A stretch of 51,539 nucleotides of DNA, taken from assembly GCA_030145395.1 (NCBI GenBank), contig JAQYVR010000119.1, positions 1 through 51,539 of the forward strand. The letters run 5' to 3'. The stretch's first letter is position 1, and the number at the start of each line of letters is the position of its first letter. Position numbers and translations under genes: made by a program. The notes under the pieces are model-generated. The model searched no databases. It saw only the letters and a program-made list of their open reading frames with translations, and was not told where the DNA came from. Origin of the DNA: Desulfobacteria bacterium. Lineage in GTDB: Bacteria; Desulfobacterota; Desulfobacteria; Desulfobacterales; C00003060. Of this stretch, positions 3,530-33,656 are shown in pieces.

Positions 3530-5806
3530 ATGAGCTCAATTCTAGACACCATAGGCCACACACCACTCGTTGAAATCAAGCGGCTCAATCCCAACCCCAA
3601 AGTCAAGCTGCTGGCCAAGTTGGAGTATTTCAACCCGGGTGGTTCTGTAAAAGATCGTATTGCCAAGGCCATGATCGAAGCAGGAGAGGCCTCAGGATCC
3701 CTGACACACGACAAGATCGTGCTTGAGGCAACCAGTGGCAATACAGGGATTGGACTGGCCCTGGTTTGCGCGGTCAAGGGGTACCGGCTTCATTTGACGA
3801 TGTCTGAATCGGCCAGCCTGGAACGCCGCAAGATCCTACACGCCATGGGGGCCGAAATCAGTCTCACCCCGGATTTTCTTGGGACCGACGGCGCCATAGA
3901 GGAAGCGTATCGCCTTGCCCGCGAACATCCTGAAACATATTTTTTGACGGACCAATTCAACAGCGAAGCTAACTGGCGTGCCCACTACGATGGGACCGGC
4001 CCGGAAATCTGGGAACAGACATCCGGAAAATTGACTGTACTGGTTGCAACCATGGGGACCACCGGAACGCTCATGGGGACCTCCAGACGTTTGAAGGAAT
4101 ACAATCCCGAAATAAAGATTATCGGCGTCGAGCCTTATCTAGGACACAAGATTCAGGGTCTGAAAAATCTAAAGGAATCATACCAACCCGAGATTTATGA
4201 AAAGGAACGCTTGGACAAGAAGGTCAACGTCGATGATGAGGCCGCCTTTGAAATGACCCGACGCCTGGCTCGGGAAGAAGGCATCTTTGGGGGTATGAGT
4301 GCCGGCGCGGCCATGGCCGTCGCCGAAGAAGAAGTCAAATCTCTGTCCGAGGGTGTGATGGTAGTGATTTTGCCTGATGGTGGAGAGCGCTATCTCAGCA
4401 CACCGCTCTTTGCAATACAGGAAGAGACCAACCTTAGATTTTACAATACCCTGACTCATGCCAAAGAGCCCTTCGTGCCTCTACAACCGGGCAAGATATC
4501 CATCTATTCTTCCGGGCCCACTGTTCACGATAGAATGCACGTCGGAGAATGGCGCCGTTTTGTCCTGGCTGACCTTGTTCGACGGTACCTGGAATTCAAG
4601 ACATATGCGGTTACACATATCGTTAACATCTCTGACCTGAATGACAAGACAATCGTAGGGGCCGAAGAAGCCGGCATGCCTCTAAAACCCTTTACGGATA
4701 AGCACCTGCAAGCCTTTATGGAAGATGTGGAAACCCTGGGTATAAAACCGGCAACACAGTACCCCAGGGCGAGTGATCATGTTGAAGACATGGTAGCACT
4801 CACCGGACGACTAGTCGAAAAAGGTTTTGCTTATGAAAAGCTACGGTCTGTTTATTTTGACATCTCCCGATATGCTGACTATGGCAAGCTTTCCGGAATC
4901 GATCTGGATAAGATCAGGCTGGGGGCTACGGTTGACCTGGATGAATACGTGAAAGAAAACCCAAGGGATTTTGCACTCCTCAAGCGAGCCAAGCTTTCTG
5001 AACTAAAACAAGGTATCTACGCGAAAACCGAATGGGGTCAGATAAGACCAAGCTGGCATATTGAGTCTGCTGCAATGGCGATGAAGTATCTCGGTGAAAC
5101 ATTTGATATTTACACAAGCAGCCGTGATTTGATCTTTCCTCACCACGAAAATGAGATAGCCGTCAGTGGCGCTCTGACCGGAAAACCCCTGGCAAGAAAC
5201 TGGATATTATCCGAACAAGTGCTGTCAGGAGGAAAAAAGGCAGACCGCGATGCTGCTATCCCTAATATCCGGGACCTATTAGAACGTGGATATAGCGGCA
5301 GGGTGATTCGATACTGGCTTCTTTCCAATCATTATCGGAAACCCTTGAATCTGTCTTACGAAGCATTGGACCAGGCCAGCCAAGCCATCCGCCGAATTGA
5401 CGAATGCATTTCCGGCTTGGCCAGTTTGGAAGGCGGACGTTCTTATCCTGATCTGGACCAGCTTCTCTATGATATGAAAACGGGCTTTTCAGATGCCATG
5501 GATGATGATCTGAATGTGTCATCTGCCACAGCCACGATCTTCCGGATGGCCAGACGAGTGAACGGTCTTATCGTTAACAATGAGATGGACCAGACCGGGG
5601 CAAGACGAATCATTGATGCCTTCAAGAAGGTTGACACAGTGCTGAACGTTTTTGATTTTGCAAAGGCGCCGGAAGATCCCGAGGTTCAGAAGCTCAAGCG
5701 TGAGCGTGAAGAGGCCAGGCGCAGGAAGGACTGGAAGCTGGCAGACCAGCTTAGAGAGCGCCTCGTGGCTATGGGGGCCGAGATCAGAGACAAGAAGATA
5801 ATGTGA
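3530..5806 (+). CDS. fusion protein: CysM/CysK-type PLP-dependent cysteine synthase (res 1-~297) joined to a full-length cysteinyl-tRNA-synthetase-like module with degenerate catalytic motifs (res ~301-758)
   Basis: The N-terminal half has FNPGGSVKDR (PLP lysine), TSGNTGIGLA, MGTTGTLMG and a GERYLSTPLF end. The C-terminal half aligns by eye to CysRS (LRFYNTLT..KEPF.P, WHIE, FPHHENEIA, IRYWLL..HYRKPLN.S and a C-terminal ..KDWKLADQLRERL..G). However, HIGH is HVGE, KMSKS is KKADR, and the two zinc-ligand cysteines are serines. Confidence 0.85.
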   Translation: MSSILDTIGHTPLVEIKRLNPNPKVKLLAKLEYFNPGGSVKDRIAKAMIEAGEASGSLTHDKIVLEATSGNTGIGLALVCAVKGYRLHLTMSESASLERRKILHAMGAEISLTPDFLGTDGAIEEAYRLAREHPETYFLTDQFNSEANWRAHYDGTGPEIWEQTSGKLTVLVATMGTTGTLMGTSRRLKEYNPEIKIIGVEPYLGHKIQGLKNLKESYQPEIYEKERLDKKVNVDDEAAFEMTRRLAREEGIFGGMSAGAAMAVAEEEVKSLSEGVMVVILPDGGERYLSTPLFAIQEETNLRFYNTLTHAKEPFVPLQPGKISIYSSGPTVHDRMHVGEWRRFVLADLVRRYLEFKTYAVTHIVNISDLNDKTIVGAEEAGMPLKPFTDKHLQAFMEDVETLGIKPATQYPRASDHVEDMVALTGRLVEKGFAYEKLRSVYFDISRYADYGKLSGIDLDKIRLGATVDLDEYVKENPRDFALLKRAKLSELKQGIYAKTEWGQIRPSWHIESAAMAMKYLGETFDIYTSSRDLIFPHHENEIAVSGALTGKPLARNWILSEQVLSGGKKADRDAAIPNIRDLLERGYSGRVIRYWLLSNHYRKPLNLSYEALDQASQAIRRIDECISGLASLEGGRSYPDLDQLLYDMKTGFSDAMDDDLNVSSATATIFRMARRVNGLIVNNEMDQTGARRIIDAFKKVDTVLNVFDFAKAPEDPEVQKLKREREEARRRKDWKLADQLRERLVAMGAEIRDKKIM

Positions 5807-5807
5807 T

Positions 5808-6887
5808 ATGAAATTCCCAATCTTATCCCCCGTCTATTTCCCTTTTACCTTCATGTCTCCCTTGTTGGTGGAAGCCATTTCGCTCTGTTTCGACCGGCTG
5901 GTTGTCTACCAGCCTGCTTTTGCCAAGCCTCAACAGGCCCTTCAGCCTTGGGTTGACACAGGCGTCCTGGACTTACGCAGCCCTTTCGAAAGCATCATCG
6001 ATAAGGGACCATTAGAGGCAGCACTACGGGATTTCAGAAGCTGGGGCCTCCTCCACCAGCACACTGATATGACTTATCTGAAGATGGCTGGAAACGGTGT
6101 TGCACCAATAGATCCGGAAATAGCAAGAACCGCTTCTGCTATCAGGGGCAAGGTTGAAGAACCGCCCAACACATCTGAAGAGAATGACCTTTCCCTGCAG
6201 CTGTTCCTTCATCTCGCCCAGGAGTTTGATGAAAACTCTTGGGAATTGAGAGATCAACTGAATCGCGTTAATTACCAGTATCATGCCCTGCAAAGTGCAT
6301 TTCGCCAGGACCAAAACGGCAAAGCGCACGAACCAGCCCTAAAAGACCTTCCCGCTCGTGTTGCCGATGATGACCTTGGGAGTTTTATGATCGAAAAGAG
6401 GATGGCAGCCTGGAACAATCTCTTCCAGAACGATCCAGATGACACCGGTCTTCTGTTTACAGATTCTCATTCAGCGTTCGCCTACCTCCTTGACGAAGTT
6501 CAGAATAAGGTAGAAGTCCTGAAGTTCAGTTTCACATACAACCCAGCCGAGTCAAAAGGGGAGCCCAAGAAGCATCCCAATTGGGTGAATCACCTTCAAG
6601 AGATCTTCAATACGGTGATCACCATGCCATGGAGCCGGACATTGCAGGAAGAGATTCGGCAGGCGAGCCATGAAATAGAGGCGAGGATTGATGACTGGCA
6701 AAGGTCAACCATGAAACCTGATGACCGAAGCATATCATTCCGCTGGTATGTGGTGCCGGACCATGTCGCCCATACTATGTTGAATCGACGTTGCGACATG
6801 GAAAGTGAACATGCTGAAAATAAGGCTCCGAAGCTAAAGAACACTCTGGTCGGAATGATTGAAGAGGGCCGACCAGCAGTGTTGTGA
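5808..6887 (+). CDS. hypothetical protein (359 aa), translationally coupled to the CysM-CysRS-like gene
   Basis: Its ATG lies 1 nt after the upstream TGA (5804-5806). It is a long ORF with no competing frame, and I recognise no motif in it. Confidence 0.6.
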   Translation: MKFPILSPVYFPFTFMSPLLVEAISLCFDRLVVYQPAFAKPQQALQPWVDTGVLDLRSPFESIIDKGPLEAALRDFRSWGLLHQHTDMTYLKMAGNGVAPIDPEIARTASAIRGKVEEPPNTSEENDLSLQLFLHLAQEFDENSWELRDQLNRVNYQYHALQSAFRQDQNGKAHEPALKDLPARVADDDLGSFMIEKRMAAWNNLFQNDPDDTGLLFTDSHSAFAYLLDEVQNKVEVLKFSFTYNPAESKGEPKKHPNWVNHLQEIFNTVITMPWSRTLQEEIRQASHEIEARIDDWQRSTMKPDDRSISFRWYVVPDHVAHTMLNRRCDMESEHAENKAPKLKNTLVGMIEEGRPAVL

Positions 6888-7056: not shown

Positions 7057-7242
7057 ATGTTTGTACCGGCTGTGGACAAGGACAAGTGCACCGGCTGTGG
7101 AGAGTGTGTTGAAGTTTGCCCCGTTGAAGTTTTCGAGCTTGAAGACGAAAAATCTGAGCCTGTCAATGCAGACGAGTGTTTAGGATGTGAAAGCTGCATT
7201 GAGGTTTGTGAGGCAGAGGCAATAACAGTCGAAGAAACATAG
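7057..7242 (+). CDS. fdx: 2x[4Fe-4S] ferredoxin
   Basis: 61 aa with two cluster motifs, CTGCGECVEVCP and CLGCESCIEVCE, and a strong RBS. Confidence 0.85.
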   Translation: MFVPAVDKDKCTGCGECVEVCPVEVFELEDEKSEPVNADECLGCESCIEVCEAEAITVEET

Positions 7243-7388: not shown

Positions 7389-7673
7389 ATGAAAATGGAA
7401 GACAAACCGATTGCCCGCTGCGAGGCCAATGGCGTGGATGCCTATAAGTATCCCTTTTTCGTAAAACCTGCGCACGGAATGGAACCCGCCTACGTTTTTC
7501 TGGAAGAGCATGTTTACAATTTCACCACCGAGGAGATCGAAGAGATCATGACCCACCTTGTCCGCATTGAAGATGAAAAGGATCTTCAGGCCCTCGGATA
7601 CAAAAGAAATGAAGAGGGGATTTACATCTTATCAACATCAGAGGAACCGTGGTCTCCCGGAGGCGAATCATGA
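7389..7673 (+). CDS. hypothetical small protein (94 aa)
   Basis: The stop TGA (7671-7673) overlaps the hbd ATG (7670) in an ATGA coupling arrangement. The protein is acidic and I recognise no motif. Confidence 0.5.
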
Positions 7674-8518: not shown

Positions 8519-9787
8519 ATGCTTTTTCCTGAAATGGCCATAGTTCGGCAAGAACTCCACGCCGAAAAGATTGAAGACATCCCTGCAGCTGTAAGCAATG
8601 CCCTTCAGCCCCTTCAGCTCGACTCACAAACAAAACCCGGCGCATCCGTGGCAGTGGCCGTTGGAAGCCGGGGAATCAGCCACATTGCTGTCATTGTTTC
8701 TGAATGCGTGAAGTCGTTAACCGACAGCGGCTTGGAGCCCTTTATTGTCCCTGCTATGGGGAGTCACGGGGGAAACACACCCGAGGGTGAACGCTCGGTT
8801 CTATCAAGGCTTGGCATTACTGAATCATCAGTTAATGCCCCCATACTTGCGGCTAAGGATGTGGTCAAAATTGGAACTTTGGACATTGGCGTACCCATTC
8901 TCATGGACAAACGTGCAGCCGAAGCCGACCACATTGTAGTAATCAACCGGGTGAAGCCCCATACGAAATTCCACGGGCCGATTGAAAGCGGCCTGACCAA
9001 GATACTCACGGTCGGACTCGGGAAAGGGGAAGGAGCAGTTCTGTATCACCGGGCTGCCGTCCAGCACACTTTTGGCATATTGCAGGACGCTGCCCGAAAT
9101 ATCCTGGAAAACCGTTCAGTCCTCTTTGGGCTTGCCATACTTGAAGACGGTTACAGGAATGTCTCTCGACTCAGTGCTGTAAGGCCCGAAAACTGGTTTG
9201 AATCAGAACGTGCCCTGCTCGATGAGACACGTATGATGACCCCACGCATCCCGTTTGACGGGGTCGATATTCTGATCATAGATGAAATAGGAAAAGAGAT
9301 CAGCGGTATCGGCATGGATTCGAACGTGACTGGAAGACACAGGGACATAGTAGGCGACTTTCTCACTGCCCCGAACGTAAAGCGGATCTTCGTGAGAGAT
9401 TTGAGCCCTGAATCGGACGGCAATGGAAATGGCATCGGACTGGCGGACGTGACCACACGACGTCTCGTGGATGCCCTCGATCTTGAAAAGACTTATACGA
9501 ATGCCCTGACAGCCATCTCTCCGGAAAAGGCGGCTATTCCCATGACTTTCGAGACAGACCGTGAATGCATAGAGGCCTGTCTCAATACCATCGGTCTGGT
9601 GCAGCCTGAGGAAGTGCGGATAATTCGTATCAAAAACACCGCCACGCTGGAGACGCTCTGGGCCTCAAGGGCCTTTGAAGGCGATGTCACGCTCAATCCG
9701 AACCTGAAGATTCTGAGAAAATGGGAGCCGATGGCCTTTGATGATACCGGGAATCTATTCGATTTCGGATTGAAGATTGAAAGATGA
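8519..9787 (+). CDS. conserved protein of unknown function (possibly LarA_N/DUF2088- or DUF362-like)
   Basis: The 422-aa ORF starts 4 nt after the hbd stop. The family assignment rests only on a general resemblance (..VPAMGSHGG.., ..NRVKPHTKFHG..GLTK..) and is weak. Confidence 0.6.
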   Translation: MLFPEMAIVRQELHAEKIEDIPAAVSNALQPLQLDSQTKPGASVAVAVGSRGISHIAVIVSECVKSLTDSGLEPFIVPAMGSHGGNTPEGERSVLSRLGITESSVNAPILAAKDVVKIGTLDIGVPILMDKRAAEADHIVVINRVKPHTKFHGPIESGLTKILTVGLGKGEGAVLYHRAAVQHTFGILQDAARNILENRSVLFGLAILEDGYRNVSRLSAVRPENWFESERALLDETRMMTPRIPFDGVDILIIDEIGKEISGIGMDSNVTGRHRDIVGDFLTAPNVKRIFVRDLSPESDGNGNGIGLADVTTRRLVDALDLEKTYTNALTAISPEKAAIPMTFETDRECIEACLNTIGLVQPEEVRIIRIKNTATLETLWASRAFEGDVTLNPNLKILRKWEPMAFDDTGNLFDFGLKIER

Positions 9788-10876: not shown

Positions 10877-11782
10877 ATGCAACTGGTGTTGACACGTATT
10901 CTATTACTGGCGGTCACTTTCTTTATGGTTCCGGCAATGACTCAGGCTGGTGAAAAGCTCCTGAAGATGTCCACCACGACCAGCACAGAGAACTCCGGAC
11001 TCCTCAACGTATTGCTCCCTGAATTCGATGTGGACACTGGTATTCAGGTCAAGGTCTTCGCCAAGGGAACCGGCGCGGCAATCCGGGACGGCATTGACGG
11101 GAATGTGGATGTCATACTAGTACATGCCAAAGAGAGCGAGGAAAAGTTCGTGGCCAATGGCTACGGTGCGTATCGGTTGGATGTAATGCATAACGACTTC
11201 GTGATCATCGGTCCTACTATTGATCCTGCAGGGATTGATGGAATGCGTGATGCTGCCATGGCGATGAGGAAGATTGCCCGAAGCAGGTCGGTATTTGTAT
11301 CTCGGGGCGATGACAGTGGGACGCATACCAAAGAACAGGAACTGTGGAAGGCCACCGGGATGGGGCTGCGAACAGAGACCGTGGAGGTAATCAAAAAGCG
11401 GAAAAAGCAACGCTTTTTTTCACAGCATCCAGAAGAATTCGGGGCGCAATACCTTTCGATTGGACAGGGCATGGGCAAAACGTTGGCGTACGCGGAGCAG
11501 AAGCAGGCATACACACTGGCGGACCGGGGAACCTATTTGAACTACAAGTTCGGTAGAAAAGAAGGTTTGGATCTCAAGATTCTGTGCCAAGGGGACTCGA
11601 AACTGTATAACCCTTATGGAATCATCCCGATTAGTCAGAAAAAGCATCCCCACGTCAAGTTCCAGTGGGCGGATCGGTTTGCCAAATGGTTGACGTCGCA
11701 AAAGGCGCAAAGTCTCATTGGCCGTTACCAGATCGAGGGCCAACAGGCATTCTTCCCAGACGCAATTCCCAACGCAAAGTAG
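10877..11782 (+). CDS. tupA: tungstate ABC transporter substrate-binding protein (TupA-like)
   Basis: It has a signal peptide, a periplasmic-binding-protein fold and the TTTS anion-binding motif (MSTTTSTENSGLL) described for TupA. Permease and ATPase genes follow it. Confidence 0.75.
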   Translation: MQLVLTRILLLAVTFFMVPAMTQAGEKLLKMSTTTSTENSGLLNVLLPEFDVDTGIQVKVFAKGTGAAIRDGIDGNVDVILVHAKESEEKFVANGYGAYRLDVMHNDFVIIGPTIDPAGIDGMRDAAMAMRKIARSRSVFVSRGDDSGTHTKEQELWKATGMGLRTETVEVIKKRKKQRFFSQHPEEFGAQYLSIGQGMGKTLAYAEQKQAYTLADRGTYLNYKFGRKEGLDLKILCQGDSKLYNPYGIIPISQKKHPHVKFQWADRFAKWLTSQKAQSLIGRYQIEGQQAFFPDAIPNAK

Positions 11783-11831
11783 TTTGTCCTAAGTCGGCAA
11801 ACTATCTGATGATGGTTGAAGGATTCATTGT

Positions 11832-12527
11832 ATGGATTTTCTAATAGATGGCCTTCTATCCGCCTTATTACTCATCTGGTCGCTTGATCCTGGACTCATT
11901 GAGATTGTTTGGGTGTCCCTGAAGGTGAGTTCAACTTCCACGCTCATCGCCAGTTTAGTGGGTGTTCCGGCTGGCTTTCTTATCGCCTTCGGCGAGTTCT
12001 CAGGGAAACGTTTTGTCATAACGTTGCTCAACACATTGCTCGCGCTGCCCACAGTAGCAGTAGGTCTCCTTGTATACACCTTTATCTGCAGGAGAGGAAT
12101 CTTTGGCGGCTTTGATCTACTCTATACACAGAAAGCCATAATTATCGGCCAAGTGATTCTGATCATTCCCATAGTTGCCACTTTCACGATCTCTGCCGTC
12201 AGCCGCCTCGATGACCGGTACCGCAAAACAGCCCTGACTGTTGGAGCCAATGCTATTCAAACCGCCTGGGTGATTGTCCGTGAAGTCCGTTTCGGGATTG
12301 CAGCCGCCATTATTGCCGCCTTCGGAAGGGTCATCGCTGAGGTTGGGATCAGCATGATGTTGGGCGGCAACGCCAAGGGGTTCACCCGGACTATGACAAC
12401 AGCTATGGCACTGGAATATGATAAGGGGTTGTTCGAGTTGAGTGTTGCCTTGGGGATTGCACTCCTTGCCGTGAGTTTTGCGGTAAACGTTTTTTTCCAC
12501 TACTTTCAGGGCAGAGTAAGGGAGTGA
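11832..12527 (+). CDS. tupB: ABC transporter permease (TupB-like)
   Basis: 231 aa with multiple hydrophobic helices. Its position between the binding protein and the ATPase fits, and it overlaps the next gene by 4 nt. Confidence 0.75.
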   Translation: MDFLIDGLLSALLLIWSLDPGLIEIVWVSLKVSSTSTLIASLVGVPAGFLIAFGEFSGKRFVITLLNTLLALPTVAVGLLVYTFICRRGIFGGFDLLYTQKAIIIGQVILIIPIVATFTISAVSRLDDRYRKTALTVGANAIQTAWVIVREVRFGIAAAIIAAFGRVIAEVGISMMLGGNAKGFTRTMTTAMALEYDKGLFELSVALGIALLAVSFAVNVFFHYFQGRVRE

Positions 12528-13540
12528 GTGCTGTGGTCTATGAGCTAAGAAACATAACCAAGACCTTTGAACAACGAACCGTTCTGAATCTGGAAAGGCT
12601 TTCGGTGAAGAAGGGAAAGATTCTTGGTCTCCTGGGACCCAACGGTGCGGGAAAAACCACGCTCTTGGAAATCATGGCCTTTCTGTCCAGCCCAACTTCA
12701 GGTGGGATGTGGTTCAATCAACAGAAGGTTGATTTCACTGGCGGCAAACTCAAAGACCTGCGGCGAAGGGTTGTACTCGTTCAACAGGATTCTATACTGT
12801 TTTCCACATCGGTTTCCAATAATGTCGATTTCCCTCTGAGGATACGCAAGGCACCAAAGGCAAAACGAGAGCAGATCGTGGGAGAATTGCTAGACATGGT
12901 GGGAATGCGAGACTTCGGCCATGCACCAGCACATAAACTGTCGAGCGGGGAAACACAGCGCGTCGCCATTGCGCGGGCTTTGGCCTGTTTTCCTGAGGTC
13001 ATTCTTCTGGACGAACCCACGGCCAACGTTGACGTAGAAAACCAGATCGCCATAGAGCGCATCATCCGGGAGATCAACCGGACAAAAGGCATTTCTGTGG
13101 TCTTTACAACTCACAATATGATTCAGGCGTCGAGGCTGGCTGATGAGACCGTCTTCCTGTATGAAGGAAAGGTTGCGCGATCCATCTATGAAAACATCTT
13201 CAGTGGTCGCATTCAAACTGACGAAAGCGGTCGGCAACTGTGTGTGGCCCAGAATGGACTGAGATTACACGTTCAGCATGACAAATCGGGTCCGGTGCGT
13301 ATATCTATTGATCCTGCTATCGTAGAAATCAGCCGAAACGGAAACGAGTTTTCTGAAGACAACACCTTCAAGGGAAGGCTCATCCAGCTTACGGACGAGC
13401 AGGGACGGGTGAGAGCGTTGGTAGATGTAGGAGTACCACTCAGTGTTTTGATACCCAAAGAGGTCTTCCGCAGTCTAGGTTTGGGCATAGGAGATGACGT
13501 GTGGCTCAACTGCCCGGCAAAAAGCATTGAAATCTTTTGA
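12524..13540 (+). CDS. tupC: ABC transporter ATP-binding protein with C-terminal TOBE-like domain (TupC-like)
   Basis: Walker A GPNGAGKTT, signature LSSGETQRVAIARAL and Walker B ILLDEPT are present. A ~100-aa C-terminal extension resembles those of molybdate/tungstate ATPases. Confidence 0.8.
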   Translation: MSAVVYELRNITKTFEQRTVLNLERLSVKKGKILGLLGPNGAGKTTLLEIMAFLSSPTSGGMWFNQQKVDFTGGKLKDLRRRVVLVQQDSILFSTSVSNNVDFPLRIRKAPKAKREQIVGELLDMVGMRDFGHAPAHKLSSGETQRVAIARALACFPEVILLDEPTANVDVENQIAIERIIREINRTKGISVVFTTHNMIQASRLADETVFLYEGKVARSIYENIFSGRIQTDESGRQLCVAQNGLRLHVQHDKSGPVRISIDPAIVEISRNGNEFSEDNTFKGRLIQLTDEQGRVRALVDVGVPLSVLIPKEVFRSLGLGIGDDVWLNCPAKSIEIF

Positions 13541-16512: not shown

Positions 16513-16547
16513 CCAATGACTAATGGCCAGTGACTATTGACGAACTT
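16513..16547. repeat. 7-nt periodic array (5 units) abutting the ftsZ stop codon
   Basis: CCAATGA CTAATGG CCAGTGA CTATTGA CGAACTT. The ftsZ TAA is the complement of 16546-16548. Confidence 0.75.
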
Positions 16548-17715
16548 AATCCGCCTTTCGCCGCATGAACGTGGGAACTTCCAGATCCTGGCCGTCCAGG
16601 ATAATCCCACGATAGCCTCTGTACTGGGCCCCACCAGATTCGCCCACTGCCTTTTCTTGACGGATGAAAGTCGGTTGATCAAGGTCGACTGCCCGCGTAT
16701 GGTCGGCCGGCGTAATGTCACGAACCTTGCCTGAGGTTTGAATCACATCTTCCTCCTCTTTCGTGCCGATCCCGGTGGCAATGACCGTAACTCTGAGTTC
16801 ATTCTCTATGTTGTCATCCAAGACAGTACCCCAGATAATATCCGCATCTTCACCAACCTCGGCGTGGATACGATCTGACGCTTCTGTCATCTCCGCCATG
16901 GTCAGCTCCGGTCCACAGGTAATGTTCATCAAGACGCCCCGTGCCCCGTTAATAGAAACACCCTCGAGAAGCGGATGGGAAATCGCCTTTTCGGCTGCCT
17001 CAACTGCCCGATTCTCTCCGCTGGCAATGCCAGTACCCATGATGGCCAAGCCTGCCTTCGACATGGTTGTCCTTACATCTGAAAAATCAAGGTTAACCAG
17101 CCCCGGCATCATGATCAGGTCAGTTATTCCCCTCACAGCGTGAAGCAGGACTTCATCGGCCCTCTTGAACATTTCGAGAGCGGTTGCGTTCCTTGACGCC
17201 AGGCCTCTAAGTCGGTCATTAGGAATCACAATCACCGTGTCTGCCACGTCCTTAAGGTTTTCCAGGCCGGCCTCGGCCTGTCTGGCTCGCTTTTTTCCCT
17301 CAAAACCGAAGGGCTTGGTAACCACTGCCACACTCAGAGCACCAGCATCTTTGCAGGCTTCGGCGATGACGGGTGCTGCCCCTGTGCCAGTGCCCCCACC
17401 CAGCCCAGCCGTAATAAAGACCATGTGGCTGTCTTCAAGCGAGCTTCGCACAGGGTCTACGCTTTCCAGGGCAGCCTGTCTCCCGATTTCCGGATTAGCC
17501 CCGGCCCCAAGGCCCTCGGTCAGCATTTCCCCTATCTGAATCTTAACCGGTGCCCTTGATGCCTCAAGGTCCTGCGCATCGGTGTTAACGGCAATGAACT
17601 TGCAGCCCTGGAGCCTAGCATTAATCATGTTGTTCACGGCGTTTCCACCAGCGCCCCCCACACCGACCACTTTGATCTTGGCCGATTTTTCGTTTTCCAC
17701 GAAACTGAACATCAT
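16546..17715 (-). CDS. ftsZ: cell division GTPase FtsZ
   Basis: IKVVGVGGAGGNAV and the tubulin signature GGGTGTGAAPV are present. ATG 17715 is preferred because AGGAGG lies 8 nt upstream; the ORF track starts at GTG 17724. Confidence 0.97.
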   Translation of the reverse strand: MMFSFVENEKSAKIKVVGVGGAGGNAVNNMINARLQGCKFIAVNTDAQDLEASRAPVKIQIGEMLTEGLGAGANPEIGRQAALESVDPVRSSLEDSHMVFITAGLGGGTGTGAAPVIAEACKDAGALSVAVVTKPFGFEGKKRARQAEAGLENLKDVADTVIVIPNDRLRGLASRNATALEMFKRADEVLLHAVRGITDLIMMPGLVNLDFSDVRTTMSKAGLAIMGTGIASGENRAVEAAEKAISHPLLEGVSINGARGVLMNITCGPELTMAEMTEASDRIHAEVGEDADIIWGTVLDDNIENELRVTVIATGIGTKEEEDVIQTSGKVRDITPADHTRAVDLDQPTFIRQEKAVGESGGAQYRGYRGIILDGQDLEVPTFMRRKAD

Positions 17716-17793
17716 AGTCCCCACCTCCTGTTGTTTTTGTTTCCACTACTCCACCATTCCACTAACCCAAACAAGGCTGCCCCCCTTCCCATT

Positions 17794-19020
17794 TTAAATG
17801 ATGTCCTTAAACCACTTCTTCATACGGGCCATGACGTGATCAAAGATGTTGCTGTCTCGGATCCTGAATTTCTTCTTGGGCTGAGACCTTGCGCCAAATA
17901 GTACTAACCCAACGCCCGTGGCATACATTGGGTTGTTCACCACATCAACCAATCCGCTGATCCCTCCGGGTTTTCCAATCCGTGTGGGAAGATTGAACAC
18001 CGACTCCGCGATATCCACAACGCCTTCCAGCAGGGAGGACCCTCCGGTGACTACTACTCCCGAAGTTATTGAATCCTCCATGTCAGAGCCATAAACTTCC
18101 CTTTGGACTAGATTGAAGATCTCTTCGACTCTGGGTTCGAGGATCTCGCCCAGTATTTGCCTTGAAAGTGTTCTTGGCTTGCGTCCGCCCACACCTGCAA
18201 CCTCAATAGTCTCGTCGCTGCCAATCTTACTCGTAAGACAGCTCCCATACTTTATCTTGATCTTTTCTGCCTCTCCCATGGGTGTCCTCAGCCCCACGGA
18301 AATATCATGGGTAAGATTGTTCCCTCCCAGGGCCAGGACCGAAGTGTGTTTGATGCTATTCCCCTTCAGAACCGCCAGGTCGGTAGTTCCTCCCCCAAAG
18401 TCAATCAGGGCCGCACCCAGGGCCTTCTCCTCTTCGGTCAGCACGGCCTCACTTGATGCAAGGGATTGAAGCACAATATCACACACATCAAGTCCGGCAC
18501 GGTTGGCACACTTTATGATGTTTTGAGCGGAGGTGACGGCTCCGGTCACGATGTGTACCCTCGCCTCCAGCCGAACTCCTGACATGCCGAGTGGATCCTG
18601 GATTCCGTCCTGCTCATCCACAATAAACTCCTGGGGCAGCACATGAATCACCTCACGGTCCATGGGAATGGCTACTGCCCTGGCTGCATCAATCACGCGT
18701 TCGATGTCCTTTTCAGTGACCTCATTGCCCTTTATGGCAACGATTCCGTGGCTGTTAAAACCCTTGATATGCCCACCGGCAATCCCCGCATAGACAGACC
18801 TGATCTCGCAGCCAGCCATGAGTTCGGCTTCTTCTACGGCTTTTTGAATAGAGTCAACGGTCGATTCGATATTTACGACCACGCCTTTGCGCAGCCCGAC
18901 AGATGCATGGGTTCCAGTGCCTACAATGTCGGTCCCCTCACGCGTTACACTCCCCACCACAGCACAAATCTTGGTGGTCCCGATGTCTAAACCTACTGTC
19001 AGTTCCCCATCACCCTGCAC
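17794..19020 (-). CDS. ftsA: cell division protein FtsA
   Basis: It has an actin-like ATPase fold (VGLDIGTTKICAVV, DFGGGTTD). GTG 19020 is preferred: AAGGAGG lies 7 nt upstream and the start is 2 nt after the ftsQ TGA. The ORF track starts at 19059. Confidence 0.93.
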   Translation of the reverse strand: MQGDGELTVGLDIGTTKICAVVGSVTREGTDIVGTGTHASVGLRKGVVVNIESTVDSIQKAVEEAELMAGCEIRSVYAGIAGGHIKGFNSHGIVAIKGNEVTEKDIERVIDAARAVAIPMDREVIHVLPQEFIVDEQDGIQDPLGMSGVRLEARVHIVTGAVTSAQNIIKCANRAGLDVCDIVLQSLASSEAVLTEEEKALGAALIDFGGGTTDLAVLKGNSIKHTSVLALGGNNLTHDISVGLRTPMGEAEKIKIKYGSCLTSKIGSDETIEVAGVGGRKPRTLSRQILGEILEPRVEEIFNLVQREVYGSDMEDSITSGVVVTGGSSLLEGVVDIAESVFNLPTRIGKPGGISGLVDVVNNPMYATGVGLVLFGARSQPKKKFRIRDSNIFDHVMARMKKWFKDII

Positions 19021-19022
19021 TA

Positions 19023-19991
19023 TCACACCTCCTTTCGCTTGCCCAACCAATGGTCGCATCCCTCGGCAACCGAGCGTCCTTCAGCCTGCCCGGTCGGCAA
19101 CGGCCTGACCACAACCCGATCTGGGTCGATCAGGTCGATGAACTGAAGATTCAATATCCCGCTTTTCTCTCTCAAATAAGAAACCATATATTCAAGTCGG
19201 TTGAATTTTGATTCATAGCCTCCAAAACCCACCTTGATTGCAACGTCACTTGGAGCGGCCTGTGCCTGCCCCTGCAGGTTGCTTGCGCAGGCAGGCGCAT
19301 ACAAGGGCTTGGCAGAGAGGTTGTGCGGATCAAGCGAGGTATAAAGAGTGAGTCCCGTCTCCCTGTCGATCCGAACACGGTGCAACGCATAGAAGGGAAT
19401 CGCATCTTCATGAAGTCGGCTCAAGCGAAGCGCCTCCATAAGAGTCCTGAACAGCCGCGAACGCCAGGGGTCTTGCAAATCAATATCTGAAGCGGATAGG
19501 CCGGTCACCACAGGCACCATCGCCTTGTCTGAAGATTCCACCGGTTTAAAGATATTCCCCTTTTCGTCAAGATAAAAAAGCCTGTCCAGGTCGACTATCG
19601 CCACGGGGACTCGCTCTTTTACCCGAATATGAATGGTGTCAGGCAACTCTCGTTCGACCTCGGCACCAGCAACCCATGGATGTGCCATAAGTCGGTAACG
19701 GATCGTATTTACATTCACAGAAAGAATGTTGTCATACCGCTTCAGCCCGGTCCGCTTCAAAATGGTCCCCTTTGACAGCCTTTTGTTTCCCTCAACGGTT
19801 ATCTCGTGGGCTTCAAAGTAGGAAGTCTGGGTCACGGCATCATAGGCCAGTATGAGGAGCAGGCTCGTTCCGGCCATGCCTCCCATCAACAACATGATTT
19901 TGAGGCCCAGGAGCCAGCGTCTTATGATCTGCTGTCTTCTTTGTGCCCGGCTGTTTTTATAATAGTTCTTATGAATCCTTTTCCTGGCCAA
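19023..19991 (-). CDS. ftsQ: cell division protein FtsQ (POTRA domain)
   Basis: A basic N-terminus and a single TM helix are followed by a POTRA-like ITVEGNKRLSKGTILKRTGL. It occupies the conserved position between murB and ftsA. Confidence 0.8.
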   Translation of the reverse strand: MARKRIHKNYYKNSRAQRRQQIIRRWLLGLKIMLLMGGMAGTSLLLILAYDAVTQTSYFEAHEITVEGNKRLSKGTILKRTGLKRYDNILSVNVNTIRYRLMAHPWVAGAEVERELPDTIHIRVKERVPVAIVDLDRLFYLDEKGNIFKPVESSDKAMVPVVTGLSASDIDLQDPWRSRLFRTLMEALRLSRLHEDAIPFYALHRVRIDRETGLTLYTSLDPHNLSAKPLYAPACASNLQGQAQAAPSDVAIKVGFGGYESKFNRLEYMVSYLREKSGILNLQFIDLIDPDRVVVRPLPTGQAEGRSVAEGCDHWLGKRKEV

Positions 19992-20904
19992 CGATGGTTA
20001 CCTCCGGCTCTAAGTTAACACCGAACCCTTCAAATACACTCTCCTGTATCTGTTTCATCAGGTCAATAACGTCGGAAGCTTTGGCATGCCCCTTGTTCAC
20101 AATAAAATTGGCGTGTTTTGTTGAAACCTCAGCTTCCCCAACGGAAAGCCCCTTCAATCCTGCCTGATCAATAAGCTCACCAGCGGCCTTTTGCCCTTGT
20201 GGATTTTGAAACACACACCCAGCACTGGGAAGGGCAAGCGGTTGACTCAACCTTCGTTTCTTTTGCAGGCGAATGGCCTCCTCTTGGAGGGTCTCCCGAT
20301 CTGTCCGTTTCAACTTGAACTGGCCACTCAAGACAATGGTCCTTTTTCCCAGATCCAGCCTCCTGTAAGAGAATTGAAGTTGGTCACGATGCAGGCTGGT
20401 AATCTCTCCATTTTGATCAAGGACTCTAATCGAACTGGTGCTGTCCGCCATACATCGTCCCCAGGCCCCTGCGTTCGTTAGCAGTGCCCCTCCTACCGTT
20501 CCAGGAATACCGAGTGCAAAGTTGAACCCTGATAGACCTTGGTCGAGAGCATATTTGCCGAGTCGACGAACCAGGACTGCTGCGCCTGCGTTCACCGTCG
20601 CGCTGCTGTCATTGGCCCCTGATACAAGCTGAATTGCCTCAAAGTCATCGGCTAATCTAAGCATCAGGCCTCGAACGCCACCGTCTCGGACCAGGAGGTT
20701 GGTTCCTTCGCCCAAGATCATAATAGGGTGATTCTTGTCGTCAGCCCACAAGACTACATCCCTTATCTCTTGCTCGGTCTTCACACTGACCAGTGCGTCC
20801 ACTGGTCCTCCTATTCTGAGGGTCGTGTGACGCCACATCGGTTCGTCAAGCAAGACGTTTGTGCCAAAACGTTCTGTCAGCCAGTCTTTGTCTGATTGAT
20901 TCAT
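19969..20904 (-). CDS. murB: UDP-N-acetylenolpyruvoylglucosamine reductase
   Basis: It has the FAD-binding RIGGP and GEGTNLLV motifs and the C-terminal SAGCVFQNP and VSTKHANFIVN motifs. Confidence 0.93.
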   Translation of the reverse strand: MNQSDKDWLTERFGTNVLLDEPMWRHTTLRIGGPVDALVSVKTEQEIRDVVLWADDKNHPIMILGEGTNLLVRDGGVRGLMLRLADDFEAIQLVSGANDSSATVNAGAAVLVRRLGKYALDQGLSGFNFALGIPGTVGGALLTNAGAWGRCMADSTSSIRVLDQNGEITSLHRDQLQFSYRRLDLGKRTIVLSGQFKLKRTDRETLQEEAIRLQKKRRLSQPLALPSAGCVFQNPQGQKAAGELIDQAGLKGLSVGEAEVSTKHANFIVNKGHAKASDVIDLMKQIQESVFEGFGVNLEPEVTIVGQEKDS

Positions 20905-21081
20905 ATAAATATCTCGCTCTCAACTCACGTTCGCTTCAGGCGGAAAACCGTCACCTAATTGGCGTGTTAGAGTATTAAGAACGGCATAAGGCTCAAGGCC
21001 GGATGGCCTCTCCGTACACATTCTGCCTTTGGCCTTACGCCAACTGTTCTTCACCCATCACTCCATTGCTTCACGACTCAA

Positions 21082-22452
21082 TTACTCCAGCTCTTTGAGC
21101 ACCCTCTCTCCAACATGCCAGACATCTCCGGCGCCCAGGGTCAACAGAACATCCCCTTCCTTCAAGGTTTCTTTCAGATACGATACGGCCGCGTCGTGTC
21201 CATCATGGAAGACAACATCTTTGTGGCCGTGTTCACGGATCTCTTCACACAGGCTCTGGCCATCTATGCTTTCCATAGGGGCCTCGCCTGCCGAATAGAT
21301 GGGAAGGACCAAAACGCTGTCCGCGTCGTAAAAGGCCCGCGTAAAATCGTCAAAAAGCGCAGCAACCCGCGAGTAGCGATGAGGCTGAAACACCACAACA
21401 ATCCGGCTATCAGGCCAGCACTGGCGTGCAGCCTGGAGCGTGAGTCTGATCTCTGTTGGGTGGTGCCCATAGTCATCAACTACAGTCACACCTCTTGACG
21501 TCCCCTTTACCTCGAGCCTGCGCTGAACCCCTTCAATATCCTTGAGCGCACGCTGGATATCGTCAAAGGCAATTCCGAGTTCCATGCCAATTGCTATGCT
21601 CGCCATGGAGTTGTATACATTGTGAATGCCCGGAAGGTTTAACTGTACGGAACCCAAGGGTTCACCTCGATGCGTTACAACGTACTGGCTCGTCAGCCCG
21701 TCAAAGGTTACATCTTTGGCCTGATAATCCGCCTGAGAGGTCATGCCGTATGTAGTAAACCTTTTTTCAATCTTCGGAATAAGGTCTTGAATCCCCTCGT
21801 TGTCCAAACAGAGCACGGTCATGCCGTAAAAGGGTACCTTGTTGATGAAATCGAGAAACACCTCTTTGATTCTTTCCAGGTTCCCATAGAAATCGAGGTG
21901 TTCAGCGTTGATGTTCGTTACTACACCGATGGTCGGGGTGAGCTTCAAGAAAGAGCCATCGCTTTCGTCGGCTTCAGCTACAATGAATTCTCCCTGGCCC
22001 AGACGGGCGTTCGTTCCCAAGCTGTCGAGCTTTCCTCCGATGACCACCGTAGGATCGAGGCCCCCGTGGTCAAGGACCGAAGCAATGATCCACGTCGTTG
22101 TGGTCTTGCCATGGGCACCAGCCACAGCGATGCTGTATTTCAGCCGCATTAGTTCTGAGAGCATCTCTGCTCTGGGGATAACCGGAATAACGGCATCTCT
22201 GGCAGCCACAACCTCAGGGTTATCTGCCTTCACGGCCGAGGAAATCACCACTACATCCGCTCCTTGAATCTGCTCCGGACGATGGCCCTCAAATATCCTG
22301 CCCCCCAGTTGAGCCAGGCGTCTCGTAATCTCAGTTGACCGCAGGTCTGACCCGCTGACCATATAATCAAGGTTCAAGAGGAGCTCGGCGATCCCACTCA
22401 TTCCGATGCCGCCGATGCCAACAAAATGGATGTTATACTTCTTCTGATACAA
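21082..22452 (-). CDS. murC: UDP-N-acetylmuramate--L-alanine ligase
   Basis: IHFVGIGGIGMSGIAE, the Mur ligase P-loop GAHGKTTTT and DDYGHHPTE are present. The start codon is TTG. Confidence 0.95.
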   Translation of the reverse strand: MYQKKYNIHFVGIGGIGMSGIAELLLNLDYMVSGSDLRSTEITRRLAQLGGRIFEGHRPEQIQGADVVVISSAVKADNPEVVAARDAVIPVIPRAEMLSELMRLKYSIAVAGAHGKTTTTWIIASVLDHGGLDPTVVIGGKLDSLGTNARLGQGEFIVAEADESDGSFLKLTPTIGVVTNINAEHLDFYGNLERIKEVFLDFINKVPFYGMTVLCLDNEGIQDLIPKIEKRFTTYGMTSQADYQAKDVTFDGLTSQYVVTHRGEPLGSVQLNLPGIHNVYNSMASIAIGMELGIAFDDIQRALKDIEGVQRRLEVKGTSRGVTVVDDYGHHPTEIRLTLQAARQCWPDSRIVVVFQPHRYSRVAALFDDFTRAFYDADSVLVLPIYSAGEAPMESIDGQSLCEEIREHGHKDVVFHDGHDAAVSYLKETLKEGDVLLTLGAGDVWHVGERVLKELE

Positions 22453-22572
22453 GTTAAGTCCCTAAAGTGAGCTAAAGTGCCTGAAGTTGACGCACAAAAC
22501 AACGTTCACCGAGTCATTACTCATTGATGTCAGACATTCTTGGTTTCGACTTGCAGACCTCCAGTTCTCTTC

Positions 22573-22628
22573 ATTCCGCATTCCGTATTCCCCGTTCCAC
22601 ACTCCCTATTCGATTCACTCGATAATCG
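22573..22628. repeat. 7-nt periodic array (8 units) in the murG-murC spacer
   Basis: ATTCCGC ATTCCGT ATTCCCC GTTCCAC ACTCCCT ATTCGAT TCACTCG ATAATCG. A decamer triplet CTAAAGTGAG CTAAAGTGCC TGAAGTTGAC lies at 22462-22491. Confidence 0.75.
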
Positions 22629-22665
22629 GTTGCGGGTATCCGGCAACCAGTACCTACAACGACTA

Positions 22666-23742
22666 TTAACTCAGGACTAACAGCCTCTGACATTCCTCAA
22701 CAATAACGTCCGCAGCATCGGGACGCGCAAGGGCTAATGTGCATTTTGCCATATCCCTCAGGGTTTGAGAGTCTGACACAAAATGATCGAGTCTGTCTGC
22801 CAACACAGCACCTTTCAGATCCTTTTCCAGGATGACCTCTGCACCGCCGGCATCCGCCACATACCGTGCATTTAGCTCCTGGTGGTTATTTGCTGCAAAG
22901 GGGAAGGGGACGAAGATGGCGGGCTTCCCCAAGGCCATCAACTCTGACACTGTCGTTGCTCCGGCCCTGCACACAACCAAATCTGCGTTGCTGTAGGGGC
23001 CTGCCATGTCTTCAAAAAACGGACCGACCGTAGCGTTGATGCGCCGGCTCTTGTAGGCCTGTGCAACCCATGCTGCATCCTTGGCACCTGTCTGATGGAT
23101 AAACTTCATCTGGGCAGGGCCCTTCAGATGATAAAGGGCTTCAACCATGACACGGTTTATTGCGTGAGCCCCCTGGCTGCCACCTAGAATTAGAACCGTA
23201 AATGGACCGGGTGCCTTCTCACCCGCTTTACTTGCAAGGAGCTCCTGTCGTACAGGGTTTCCTGTCATAACAGTCTTCGATGGCCTGAATACACCGTACC
23301 TATCTGGGAACGAGATGAATACCCGGTCAACAAAACGCCCCAGCATCTTATTAGTCAAACCTGGCAGAATGTTCTGTTCATGGATAACTATCTTTTTACG
23401 GGTGAGCCTTGCCGCTAAGGCCACAGGTCCGGAGGCATATCCCCCAAGACCAATGATGACGTCAGGATCAAACCGCCAGATAATTCGCAAGGCTTGCCAC
23501 ACCCCGATCGGGATCTTGAACAACGATCGGAACTGTCGCCACAGCCCTCGTCCTTTTAGGCCTTCCGCTACAATGCCCACGTGATCAAATCCATTCTTTG
23601 AAAGGGTGGATACCTCCATTGGATTCCCCGTCCCCACAAACAATATCTTAGCCTCAAGCTCCTTAACCCTGAATGACTGGGCAATCGCAATCCCGGGGAA
23701 AAGATGACCTCCCGTTCCGCCCCCGGCAATAAGGGCCCTCAT
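22666..23742 (-). CDS. murG: undecaprenyldiphospho-muramoylpentapeptide beta-N-acetylglucosaminyltransferase
   Basis: MRALIAGGGTGGHLFPGIAIAQ is the canonical N-terminus. The start at 23742 lies 2 nt after the ftsW TGA. The ORF-track extension to 24012 overlaps ftsW and is rejected. Confidence 0.93.
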   Translation of the reverse strand: MRALIAGGGTGGHLFPGIAIAQSFRVKELEAKILFVGTGNPMEVSTLSKNGFDHVGIVAEGLKGRGLWRQFRSLFKIPIGVWQALRIIWRFDPDVIIGLGGYASGPVALAARLTRKKIVIHEQNILPGLTNKMLGRFVDRVFISFPDRYGVFRPSKTVMTGNPVRQELLASKAGEKAPGPFTVLILGGSQGAHAINRVMVEALYHLKGPAQMKFIHQTGAKDAAWVAQAYKSRRINATVGPFFEDMAGPYSNADLVVCRAGATTVSELMALGKPAIFVPFPFAANNHQELNARYVADAGGAEVILEKDLKGAVLADRLDHFVSDSQTLRDMAKCTLALARPDAADVIVEECQRLLVLS

Positions 23743-23744
23743 TG

Positions 23745-24860
23745 TCACACCGCCTGTCTGGCTGATATATTCATCAATATTCCAATGGCAGCGGCATTCA
23801 TCAACAGGGATGTGCCTCCGTAGCTTACGAACGGCAATGTCAGTCCCTTCGTGGGCAACAAACCCATGACAACACCTAAGTTGATACACACTTGCAGTCC
23901 AAGAGCAGAAATCAAACCTACAGCCAAATAGATTGCGAAGAGATCCCGGGCCCTCATAGCCACAACGATCCCCCGCCAGACGAGCATGAGATAAAGACCC
24001 ACTACAATGCACACCCCCACAAGACCTAGTTCCTCTCCCAGCACTGAAAAGACAAAGTCAGTATGGGGTTCCGGCAGATAAAAAAGCTTCTGGTAACTGT
24101 TTCCGATGCCTGACCCCACGATTCCCCCTGATCCAAAGGCCATCAGTGAATGCACAATCTGATACCCTGCGTCGCTCTCATATCTCCAGGGGTCGAGAAA
24201 GCTCATGAGTCGTCTTGCGCGGTATCCCACATGCACTACCAAGTAATAAGCAACCGGAAGGATTGCCGCCAGTGCCGTGAAAAGATGAAACAGACGTACA
24301 CCTCCTACAAAGAGCATCGTCCACGTAACCAACGCGAGGATTACCGCCGTTCCAAAGTCCGGTTGCATAACTACTAAGGCTCCAAGACTCGTAAGGACAA
24401 TGACATGAGGAAGAAAACCTATGGCAAACACCTTTATGTTCTCCTGTTTCTTGCTCATGGAATAGGCCAAATAGATAATCAGGGCCAGCCTTGCAAGCTC
24501 TGATGGTTGAAAAGAAACCCCGGAAACCTTCAACCATCGTCTGGCGCCTCCAACTGCGTGTCCCACCCCGGGCAAGTACAGGACAATGAGCAACAAAAAA
24601 GTGACCGCAAGAATAGGGTATGCCATCTTCCTATAAATGGTGTATGGCACGTGGCGGCAGGTTATTAGAACCACAATTGCTGCGAGGGCATAGACCACCT
24701 GCCTTTTGAAGAAGTAGGCGTCGCTTCCAAATCGCTTTAGGGCAACAGCTGAGCTGGCACTGTAGACCATTACCACCCCAATCGCGAGCAGCGACAGCGT
24801 ACCCCATAGGAGAAAATGATCACAGCCACCACTCTCCTTTTTCTGTTTGGCTCTTGCCAT
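23745..24860 (-). CDS. ftsW: SEDS-family peptidoglycan glycosyltransferase FtsW
   Basis: It is a polytopic membrane protein with the SEDS signatures QPSELAR, LPEPHTDF and PTKG.TLPF.SYGG. Confidence 0.93.
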   Translation of the reverse strand: MARAKQKKESGGCDHFLLWGTLSLLAIGVVMVYSASSAVALKRFGSDAYFFKRQVVYALAAIVVLITCRHVPYTIYRKMAYPILAVTFLLLIVLYLPGVGHAVGGARRWLKVSGVSFQPSELARLALIIYLAYSMSKKQENIKVFAIGFLPHVIVLTSLGALVVMQPDFGTAVILALVTWTMLFVGGVRLFHLFTALAAILPVAYYLVVHVGYRARRLMSFLDPWRYESDAGYQIVHSLMAFGSGGIVGSGIGNSYQKLFYLPEPHTDFVFSVLGEELGLVGVCIVVGLYLMLVWRGIVVAMRARDLFAIYLAVGLISALGLQVCINLGVVMGLLPTKGLTLPFVSYGGTSLLMNAAAIGILMNISARQAV

Positions 24861-24899
24861 AAGTGATCGTTCCCTAAACTAAAACCTCCGAGGCCGAAC

Positions 24900-26258: not shown

Positions 26259-26300
26259 ATCAGTGACAATCTCAACGTGAACGGACTACTAACATTCAGG

Positions 26301-27380: not shown

Positions 27381-27390
27381 GTCAGACTCT

Positions 27391-27453
27391 TTGCTGGTTA
27401 CTGGTTACTCGTTGTCGGTCAACAGTCAATAGACAATCTTCAATCTGCAATTT
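27391..27453. repeat. 7-nt periodic array (9 units) filling the murF-mraY spacer and overlapping the murF stop
   Basis: TTGCTGG TTACTGG TTACTCG TTGTCGG TCAACAG TCAATAG ACAATCT TCAATCT GCAATTT. The murF TGA is the complement of 27440-27442, which lies inside unit 8. Confidence 0.8.
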
Positions 27454-28846: not shown

Positions 28847-29042
28847 CAGCGAAACTGTGCTAAAGTGATCTAAACCTCAAATTCTCAAATCCGCATTGCG
28901 CCTGTCGGCTCAAAAACATTCTCTCAATCGACAATCGTCCATCACTCCTCGGCCCTGCTCTATGCCCTGTGCGCTTTGCTCTTTCCCTTACGCCGTAAGC
29001 CATACGCCTTTCTCTTATGTCTTTGAGCTTTCAACTCTGTTG

Positions 29043-29077
29043 CCTACTCCCTACTGCCTACTGCTTACTGCCTACTG
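29043..29077. repeat. tandem heptamer (CCTACTG)x5 overlapping the murE stop codon
   Basis: CCTACTC CCTACTG CCTACTG CTTACTG CCTACTG. On the coding strand this reads CAGTAGG/CAGTAAG, placing TAG/TAA in all three frames within three consecutive units. The murE TAG is the complement of 29058-29060. Confidence 0.9.
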
Positions 29078-33644: not shown

Positions 33645-33656
33645 GGCCCACTCACC

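Follow-up and report, generated by a model that had tools for sequence, protein, structure and literature searches.

HisZ, the regulatory subunit of ATP-phosphoribosyltransferase, and the HisRS-like domain of GCN2 perform no aminoacylation; they sense an amino acid or an uncharged tRNA, and each is a pseudo-synthetase tied to the pathway of, or the response to, its matching amino acid. For cysteine, MshC (cysteine:GlcN-Ins ligase) is a paralog of cysteinyl-tRNA synthetase (CysRS) whose role is non-translational. A second paralog, CysRS*, lacks the anticodon-binding domain, retains its catalytic function, and adjoins selC*/selB* (PMC5389517). MshC and CysRS* were the CysRS paralogs covered in a 2022 review of duplicated synthetases (PMC9437257). 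Here, we analyzed a 51,539-nucleotide (nt) contig of a Desulfobacteria bacterium (GenBank accession JAQYVR010000119.1; this whole stretch is called the window below), in which a CysM-like pyridoxal phosphate (PLP) cysteine synthase is fused to a degenerate CysRS-like module. On our preferred but tentative reading, which is nearly as apt to be right as wrong, the protein would be a working cysteine synthase whose CysRS-derived part is non-catalytic, probably binds tRNA(Cys), and serves as a regulator or scaffold.

The fusion is set apart from MshC and CysRS* because the defining features of both are absent from it. Like CysRS* (Mukai et al. 2017, PMC5389517), it is a second type of CysRS paralog in Desulfobacterales with a changed acceptor-stem region in the connective peptide (CP1). 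Unlike CysRS*, it keeps the DALR_2 and CysS_C domains, no longer has the catalytic motifs, is joined to a PALP-family enzyme, and has no tRNA gene or selB nearby. MshC needs ATP activation of cysteine, whereas all three ATP-site motifs of the fusion are gone; thus, an MshC-like ligase, one option raised in an earlier sequence-only reading of this locus, is unlikely. The MshC model TIGR03447 also scored only 147.6 bits on the fusion, below its cutoff of 485.1. With lost catalytic motifs and retained purifying selection, the module has the features of a pseudo-synthetase, and its logic as a regulator or scaffold is proposed by analogy with HisZ and the HisRS-like domain of GCN2. It differs from these in synthetase class, in amino acid, and in its partner, which is the last enzyme of cysteine synthesis, and its regulatory role is only inferred. 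Full-text literature searches, whose coverage left out most subscription journals, found no paper on a PALP-CysRS fusion, and the SepRS/SepCysS literature searched did not mention one. This agreed with the earlier suspicion that no member with this architecture had been characterized. The fusion appears to be an undescribed pseudo-synthetase paralog attached to a biosynthetic enzyme.

The gene was confirmed as a single open reading frame (ORF) of 758 codons with zero internal stops, and the linker of about 6 amino acids (aa) that had been predicted near residue 300 was located at residues 298-303. The parts of the gene are as follows.

3530..5806, + strand: whole fusion gene, 758 aa, CysM-like PLP cysteine synthase plus degenerate CysRS-like module
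3530..4420, + strand: PLP (PALP, fold type II) cysteine synthase domain, residues 1-297, from Pfam, NCBIfam, and the family alignment
4421..4438, + strand: short junction linker, residues 298-303, FAIQEETNLRFYNTL, kept across independent assemblies
4439..5380, + strand: CysRS-derived Rossmann/CP catalytic core, residues ~304-617, with degenerate motifs
5381..5803, + strand: helical DALR_2 domain and CysS_C anticodon-binding domain, residues ~618-758

Scans with hidden Markov models (HMMs) matched four Pfam domains: PALP at residues 5-283 (2e-69), tRNA-synt_1e at 315-617 (9e-78), DALR_2 at 653-708, and CysS_C at 716-756. For NCBIfam, the cysKM model TIGR01136 scored 354.4 bits, above its cutoff of 344.15, while the CysM equivalog (342 bits, cutoff 394) and the CysK equivalog (307 bits, cutoff 351) both fell below theirs. 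The closest solved structures were a CysRS (8QHP, 3e-99) and several cysteine synthases. In PGAP and the databases, the fusion proteins are named "cysteine--tRNA ligase", a label that is probably wrong.

The same fusion was found in more than 120 protein clusters of a 5.8-billion-protein collection, with homologs at E = 0, which excludes chance and bears out the earlier view that the fusion is real and seamless. The 120 best matches ranged from 100% down to 65% identity, all had PALP and CysRS domains, and each was ~758 aa long except for a few truncated entries; their sources were JGI, ENA, NCBI, and Logan assemblies. When one genome per GTDB species was scanned, the full fusion was detected in ~34 genomes. 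The carriers were metagenome-assembled genomes (MAGs) of Desulfobacterales, Desulfobacteraceae, and other Thermodesulfobacteriota, including Ca. Desulfofervidaceae and Thermodesulfobacteriales. The one exception was a MAG contig labeled Methanococcoides sp. (L022, JAIORJ010000191.1) with a Desulfobacterales-type fusion at 65% identity, and this label is probably due to bin contamination. Since the same junction was recovered in more than 120 clusters, in ~34 species-level genomes, and from independent assemblies, it is no assembly artefact. The ratio of nonsynonymous to synonymous substitution rates (dN/dS) was computed for the window gene against five relatives. It lay at 0.04-0.08 in the PLP domain and at 0.04-0.10 in the degenerate CysRS-like core, and the C-terminal part gave 0.10-0.21. 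Thus, the degenerate module is under purifying selection and is not decaying.

The PLP half looks like an intact CysM-type cysteine synthase that should be in working order. As had been stated from the sequence, K41 lies in GGSVKDR, TSGNTG at 68-73, and GTTGT at 176-180; K41, TSGNTG, Q142, GTTGT, and GMS257 are invariant or nearly so across the PLP domains of the family, with S257 as the serine to PLP N1. The domain lacks the CysK loop insertion and is hence CysM-like, with the short loop and GTTGT as in CysM, and its identity was 46% to E. coli CysK and 42% to CysM. Every catalytic motif of CysK/CysM (TIGR01136) is present, and the fusion differs from these O-acetylserine (or O-phosphoserine) sulfhydrylases in its 460-aa C-terminal CysRS-like extension and its scores below both equivalog cutoffs. 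Because the carboxylate-binding loop TSGNTG is invariant, a free amino acid rather than an ester-linked one is expected as the substrate. A CysE-like tail, with a conserved terminal Ile plugging the CysK active site, was also considered and was rejected because the tails of the family differ in length and end residue.

The C-terminal module shares with canonical CysRS (TIGR00435; E. coli CysS, PDB 1LI5/1U0B) the order of Rossmann core, CP insertion, DALR_2, and anticodon-binding domain, and it is ~36% identical to the E. coli enzyme, of which W205, H206, H234, E238, R427, W432, D436, and R439 are kept. It differs in having lost HIGH, DIHGGG, and KMSKS, in carrying Ser for C28 and C209 in the window protein, in ending ~10 residues early, and in being joined to a PLP enzyme, and it is probably no ligase. 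The earlier claim that the module aligns along the whole length of CysRS was thus right in domain order and not quite right in extent, as the protein ends in ...RDKKIM and lacks the canonical 'GxxGTxWKR' end.

Motif counts were made over the 120 best matches as family members, with 99 CysRS representatives as the canonical comparison. As had been reported for the window, HIGH has become HVGE at 337-340 (nt 4538-4549), and the canonical signature H-[ILV]-G-[HN] is absent. The change is family-wide, with Glu at the fourth position (HxGE) in 107 of the 120 members. The loss of KMSKS was upheld, but its counterpart had been misplaced as KKADR at 569-573; in HMMER and MAFFT alignments, the motif corresponds to KADRD (K570-D574), and only the first Lys is conserved in the family, with the remainder of the loop variable. 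The third ATP-site motif, overlooked in the earlier reading, has changed from DIHGGG to DIYTSS at 526-531 (DIHGGGxD to DIYTSSRD), with H224>Y, G226>S, and G227>S as changes conserved in the family.

For zinc, the equivalents of the E. coli ligands C28, C209, H234, and E238 in the window protein are S328 (within YSSGPTVHD, 326-334), S513 (within WHIES, 509-513), H538, and E542. The last two were retained within FPHHENE (536-542), as had been noted before. Ser and Cys interchange across the family at both former Cys ligand positions. At C209, Ser was found in 99/120 members and Cys was kept in 21/120, while C28 was still Cys in 100/120. The reported pair of serines is therefore correct for the window, and the change at C28 (S328) is peculiar to its own subclade (S328, W341, S513), in which every Cys ligand is gone. 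A new Cys directly follows HxGE in 79/120 members.

Of 87 positions at least 85% conserved among the 99 CysRS, 58 were retained in the fusion family and 29 were changed, and most of the changed ones belong to the ATP-site or zinc-site motifs or lie close to them. The changes include Y33>H, R168>T, W184>L, W194>Y, G201>V, G204>S, C209>S, S210>A, H224>Y, G226>S, G227>S, Q241>V, the KMSKS loop, and a deleted G455. Among the retained positions are W205, H206, H234, H235, N237, and E238 in the pocket and R423, R427, D436, R439, G446, and D451 in the C-terminal part, and new family-specific residues (H333, T467, Y497, S508, and S530) are conserved as well. The equivalents of R427, W432, D436, and R439 (R730, W735, D739, and R742 in the window protein) were identical in all 21 fusions aligned. 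In E. coli CysRS, these four are anticodon contacts and have been targeted as such, with R427 hydrogen-bonded to G34 (PMC13449415). Thus, the fusion fails four defining features of CysRS (HIGH, KMSKS, DIHGGGxD, and the zinc ligands) yet passes the HMM cutoff. The loss of the aminoacylation hallmarks that had been proposed for one protein proved to be a family-wide, selected state, covering three ATP-site motifs and, in most members, the zinc ligand C209, and the module appears to have lost aminoacylation.

Relatives of the C-terminal module were collected by a search against 1.84 billion representatives, followed by motif typing, and they formed a series from near-canonical to degenerate that the sequence-only reading had not foreseen. 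The degenerate fusions, namely the window's family and P0122-P0124, are HxGE-like, lack KMSKS, and have a shortened tail; in one of them, P0124, a long stretch of low-complexity (GNGVP)n is inserted into the helical domain. In the intermediate forms, which occur both fused (P0121, P0126, P0380, and L032-L038) and split (P0129), HIGH reads HLG[NLV] or HIG[LT] and KMSKS reads KMSRS/KMARS/KMSHT; every zinc ligand is kept, as is the whole tail. Motifs close to canonical (HLGN/KMSRS type) were found in the fusions P0121, L036, and L038 (the last two of the Ca. Desulfofervidaceae type), and a 768-aa PALP-CysRS fusion from a Nanoarchaeota MAG (P0131) has canonical HIGN, KMSKS, and zinc ligands. The remaining group consisted of ordinary standalone CysRS. 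The canonical and near-canonical fusions and the split pair (P0131; P0121, P0380, L032-L038; P0129) have the same two domains as the window's fusion; unlike it, they have lost no zinc ligand, retain KMSRS/KMSKS, and are complete at the C-terminus. In a neighbor-joining tree, built without bootstrap, all PALP-associated CysRS-like forms except P0131 formed one clade, within which the degenerate forms were monophyletic and nested. P0131 was placed outside this (Desulfobacterota) clade, which suggests that it arose by an independent fusion.

The split form was found on a 269,753-nt JGI contig (L088), where the PALP gene, 60% identical to the window's PALP domain, and the CysRS-like gene (P0129) are adjacent. 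In place of the fused junction, a stop codon and a new start lie 3 nt apart. The same contig carries a canonical CysRS (P0167, with HIGH and KMSKS) ~165 kb from the split pair. Therefore, the PALP-associated P0129 is an extra paralog in this genome and not the housekeeping enzyme.

Other unusual CysRS architectures were seen during typing. P0200 and P0388 (~705-711 aa) combine a hexapeptide-repeat serine acetyltransferase (CysE-like) N-terminus with a fully canonical CysRS, so that a second kind of cysteine-biosynthesis enzyme is joined to CysRS there. P0381 and P0382 are 652-aa CysRS with PF08915 (tRNA-Thr_ED editing domain), a domain reported fused to bacterial SepRS (PMC8762117). P0174 (858 aa) has a partial CysRS copy, starting past the HIGH region, ahead of a complete canonical CysRS, which points to tandem duplication or else to misassembly.

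Downstream of the fusion, an orphan partner gene, overlooked in the sequence-only reading, starts 1 nt past the stop codon.

5808..6887, + strand: orphan partner gene, 359 aa

The orphan family has 84 members, all labeled hypothetical, with an invariant N-terminal YFPFT motif. A family profile search placed the gene directly downstream of a degenerate-type fusion in each of 26 related loci, and two degenerate lineages (L002/L003 and L022) lacked it. It was not found at any informative intermediate or split locus (L032, L034, L036, L037, and L088), so that the near-canonical relatives also differ in lacking the partner. No match to the protein was found in Pfam, NCBIfam, PADLOC, or PDB sequences. 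Its AlphaFold model was fair (predicted local distance difference test [pLDDT] 79, predicted template modeling score [pTM] 0.79), and Foldseek gave no PDB match at E <= 0.001. Two MAG 'chromosomes', CP070668.1 (L087, 9902-10000) and CP070769.1 (L007), are scaffolds with 100-N gaps, and the gap in L087 sits exactly at the expected site of the fusion gene, upstream of the orphan gene.

For the fusion, we propose that the N-terminal half still turns a free amino acid into cysteine, while the C-terminal pseudo-synthetase, its ATP and thiol-selecting zinc sites dismantled, would no longer activate cysteine. Strong selection would keep the module for non-catalytic binding, with the anticodon arm of tRNA(Cys) as the most likely ligand. 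This ligand is proposed because no binding surface other than the anticodon surface has all of its known determinants preserved. The state of tRNA(Cys) could then couple or regulate cysteine synthesis through the pseudo-synthetase; alternatively, the module may scaffold a complex with the orphan protein, which is proposed to be co-transcribed. Of the tRNA(Cys)- or cysteine-binding scaffold put forward in the sequence-only reading, it is the tRNA(Cys) option that gained support, from the anticodon contacts shared by all 21 fusions. In a more specific form, the module would be a dedicated reader of tRNA(Cys) through which cysteine synthesis comes to depend on tRNA, in a three-part system with the orphan, either by a GCN2-like switch-on by uncharged tRNA(Cys) or by presenting aminoacyl-tRNA(Cys) to the PLP domain or the orphan. 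This elaboration is improbable as a whole.

Several observations weigh against a regulator or scaffold that binds tRNA(Cys). The cysS model TIGR00435 scored 344.4 bits on the fusion, barely above its cutoff of 340. The anticodon-binding domain has lost its C-terminal hairpin, and the CP1 residue R168 has become T467 near the acceptor-stem recognition site; a link between CP1 and how the first acceptor base pair is recognized has been drawn before (Mukai et al. 2017, PMC5389517). Thus, tRNA handling is at least altered, and tRNA binding may be altered or lost. The search for P0167 homologs as a canonical cysS in a degenerate-fusion genome gave <=52% identity and no shared contig. The full-length AlphaFold2 model (pLDDT 61, pTM 0.41, with the CysRS-like core below 50) was too poor to judge the packing of the two halves. 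Both tRNA binding and the regulatory or scaffold role are inferences from sequence.

The alternative that fared best, although still unlikely, is that the module is a sensor of a ligand other than tRNA, or an oligomerization domain, and exerts allosteric control over the synthase, as in the HisZ model but without tRNA. The ligand of the remodeled pocket could be cysteine, O-acetylserine, sulfide, a metal, or the orphan protein. The invariant pocket residues (W205, H206, H234, H235, N237, and E238), the conserved new ones, the Cys gained after HxGE, the deleted C-terminal tail, and the restriction of the orphan gene to the degenerate type all fit such a sensor. However, it leaves the identity of the anticodon contacts in 21/21 fusions unexplained, and the pocket is not uniform in the family, as the window's subclade lacks any Cys ligand. 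A domain that binds tRNA(Cys) is consistent with these contacts.

It is quite doubtful that the fusion is a still-active, unusual CysRS, possibly the sole one in the cell, that channels fresh cysteine onto tRNA(Cys), an activity that the fusions with canonical and near-canonical motifs may have. The TIGR00435 score, the PGAP name, the preserved tRNA contacts, and the existence of canonical (P0131) and near-canonical (P0121, L036, and L038) fusions point to this, as does the lack of a second cysS within the 51.5-kb window; neither a second CysRS nor a CysK was found there or in 39 related loci. Against it stand the disappearance of three ATP-site motifs, with an acidic residue at the fourth HIGH position, the unconserved KMSKS loop, the lost zinc ligands, and the coexistence of the related split pair with a canonical CysRS.

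Equally doubtful is a tRNA-dependent chemistry, in which the pseudo-CysRS would dock O-phosphoseryl (Sep)-, Ser-, or Cys-tRNA(Cys) for the PLP domain as an analogue of SepCysS, or in which a Ser/Cys nucleophile would transfer the residue without ATP, as in cyclodipeptide synthases. SepCysS is a fold-type I enzyme that works with SepRS on Sep-tRNA(Cys), whereas the PLP domain of the fusion is PALP, fold type II. The invariant TSGNTG loop suits a free amino acid rather than one linked as an ester, and no SepRS, SepCysS, or tRNA gene was found in the window or in 27 related loci, so that the SepCysS-like route suggested earlier has no positive evidence. What favors this chemistry is the CysM-like PLP domain, the Ser/Cys interchange at both former zinc-ligand positions, and the retention of anticodon contacts with loss of the ATP motifs, a pattern seen in descendants of class I synthetases that use aminoacyl-tRNA (PMC2922099). 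There is virtually no chance that the fusion is an artefact of assembly or of a frameshift, or a pseudogene in decay: the recurrence of the junction and dN/dS of ~0.04-0.10 refute this, and nothing was found in its favor.

The rest of the window is ordinary bacterial chromosome, with ferredoxin, hbd, LarA-like, ogt, tupABC, dcw, and beta-oxidation genes. The genes upstream of the fusion encode a sigma-54 activator, ThiL, and a HIT-family protein, and in other lineages this place is taken by surE, an OB-HD protein, and tmk. No selB-like neighbor was found near the fusion, and a promoter and terminator scan gave a number of sites no higher than chance. The other features noted in the window are as follows.

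7057-7242, + strand: two-cluster ferredoxin, 61 aa, between the orphan gene and hbd
7389-7673, + strand: unannotated ORF, 94 aa, between the orphan gene and hbd
8519-9787, + strand: LarA-like protein, adjoining hbd and ogt, NCBIfam 'nickel pincer cofactor-dependent isomerase, group 22' (486 bits, cutoff 400)
10877-13540, + strand: TupABC-like tungstate ABC transporter, with scores below the equivalog cutoffs
16546-34103, - strand: complete dcw (cell-division and cell-wall) cluster (mraZ, mraW, ftsI, mur genes, ftsQ, ftsA, and ftsZ)

The order orphan gene, ferredoxin, ~92-aa ORF, hbd, and LarA-like gene recurs in L004 and L087.

Non-translational paralogs such as HisZ, GCN2, MshC, YadB, and the cyclodipeptide synthases have repeatedly exposed new regulation or chemistry. 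The fusion would add a cysteine-specific pseudo-synthetase to these cases, in anaerobes of sulfur chemistry and with a co-inherited orphan partner. The series from near-canonical to degenerate forms, both fused and split, offers a natural experiment in the loss of catalysis with tRNA contacts kept. In addition, when the metabolism of Desulfobacterales MAGs is reconstructed, the probable misannotation of the fusion as CysRS can hide that the true CysRS is absent or is another protein. If the module does read tRNA(Cys), then together with the 359-aa orphan it would form a previously unrecognized three-part system.

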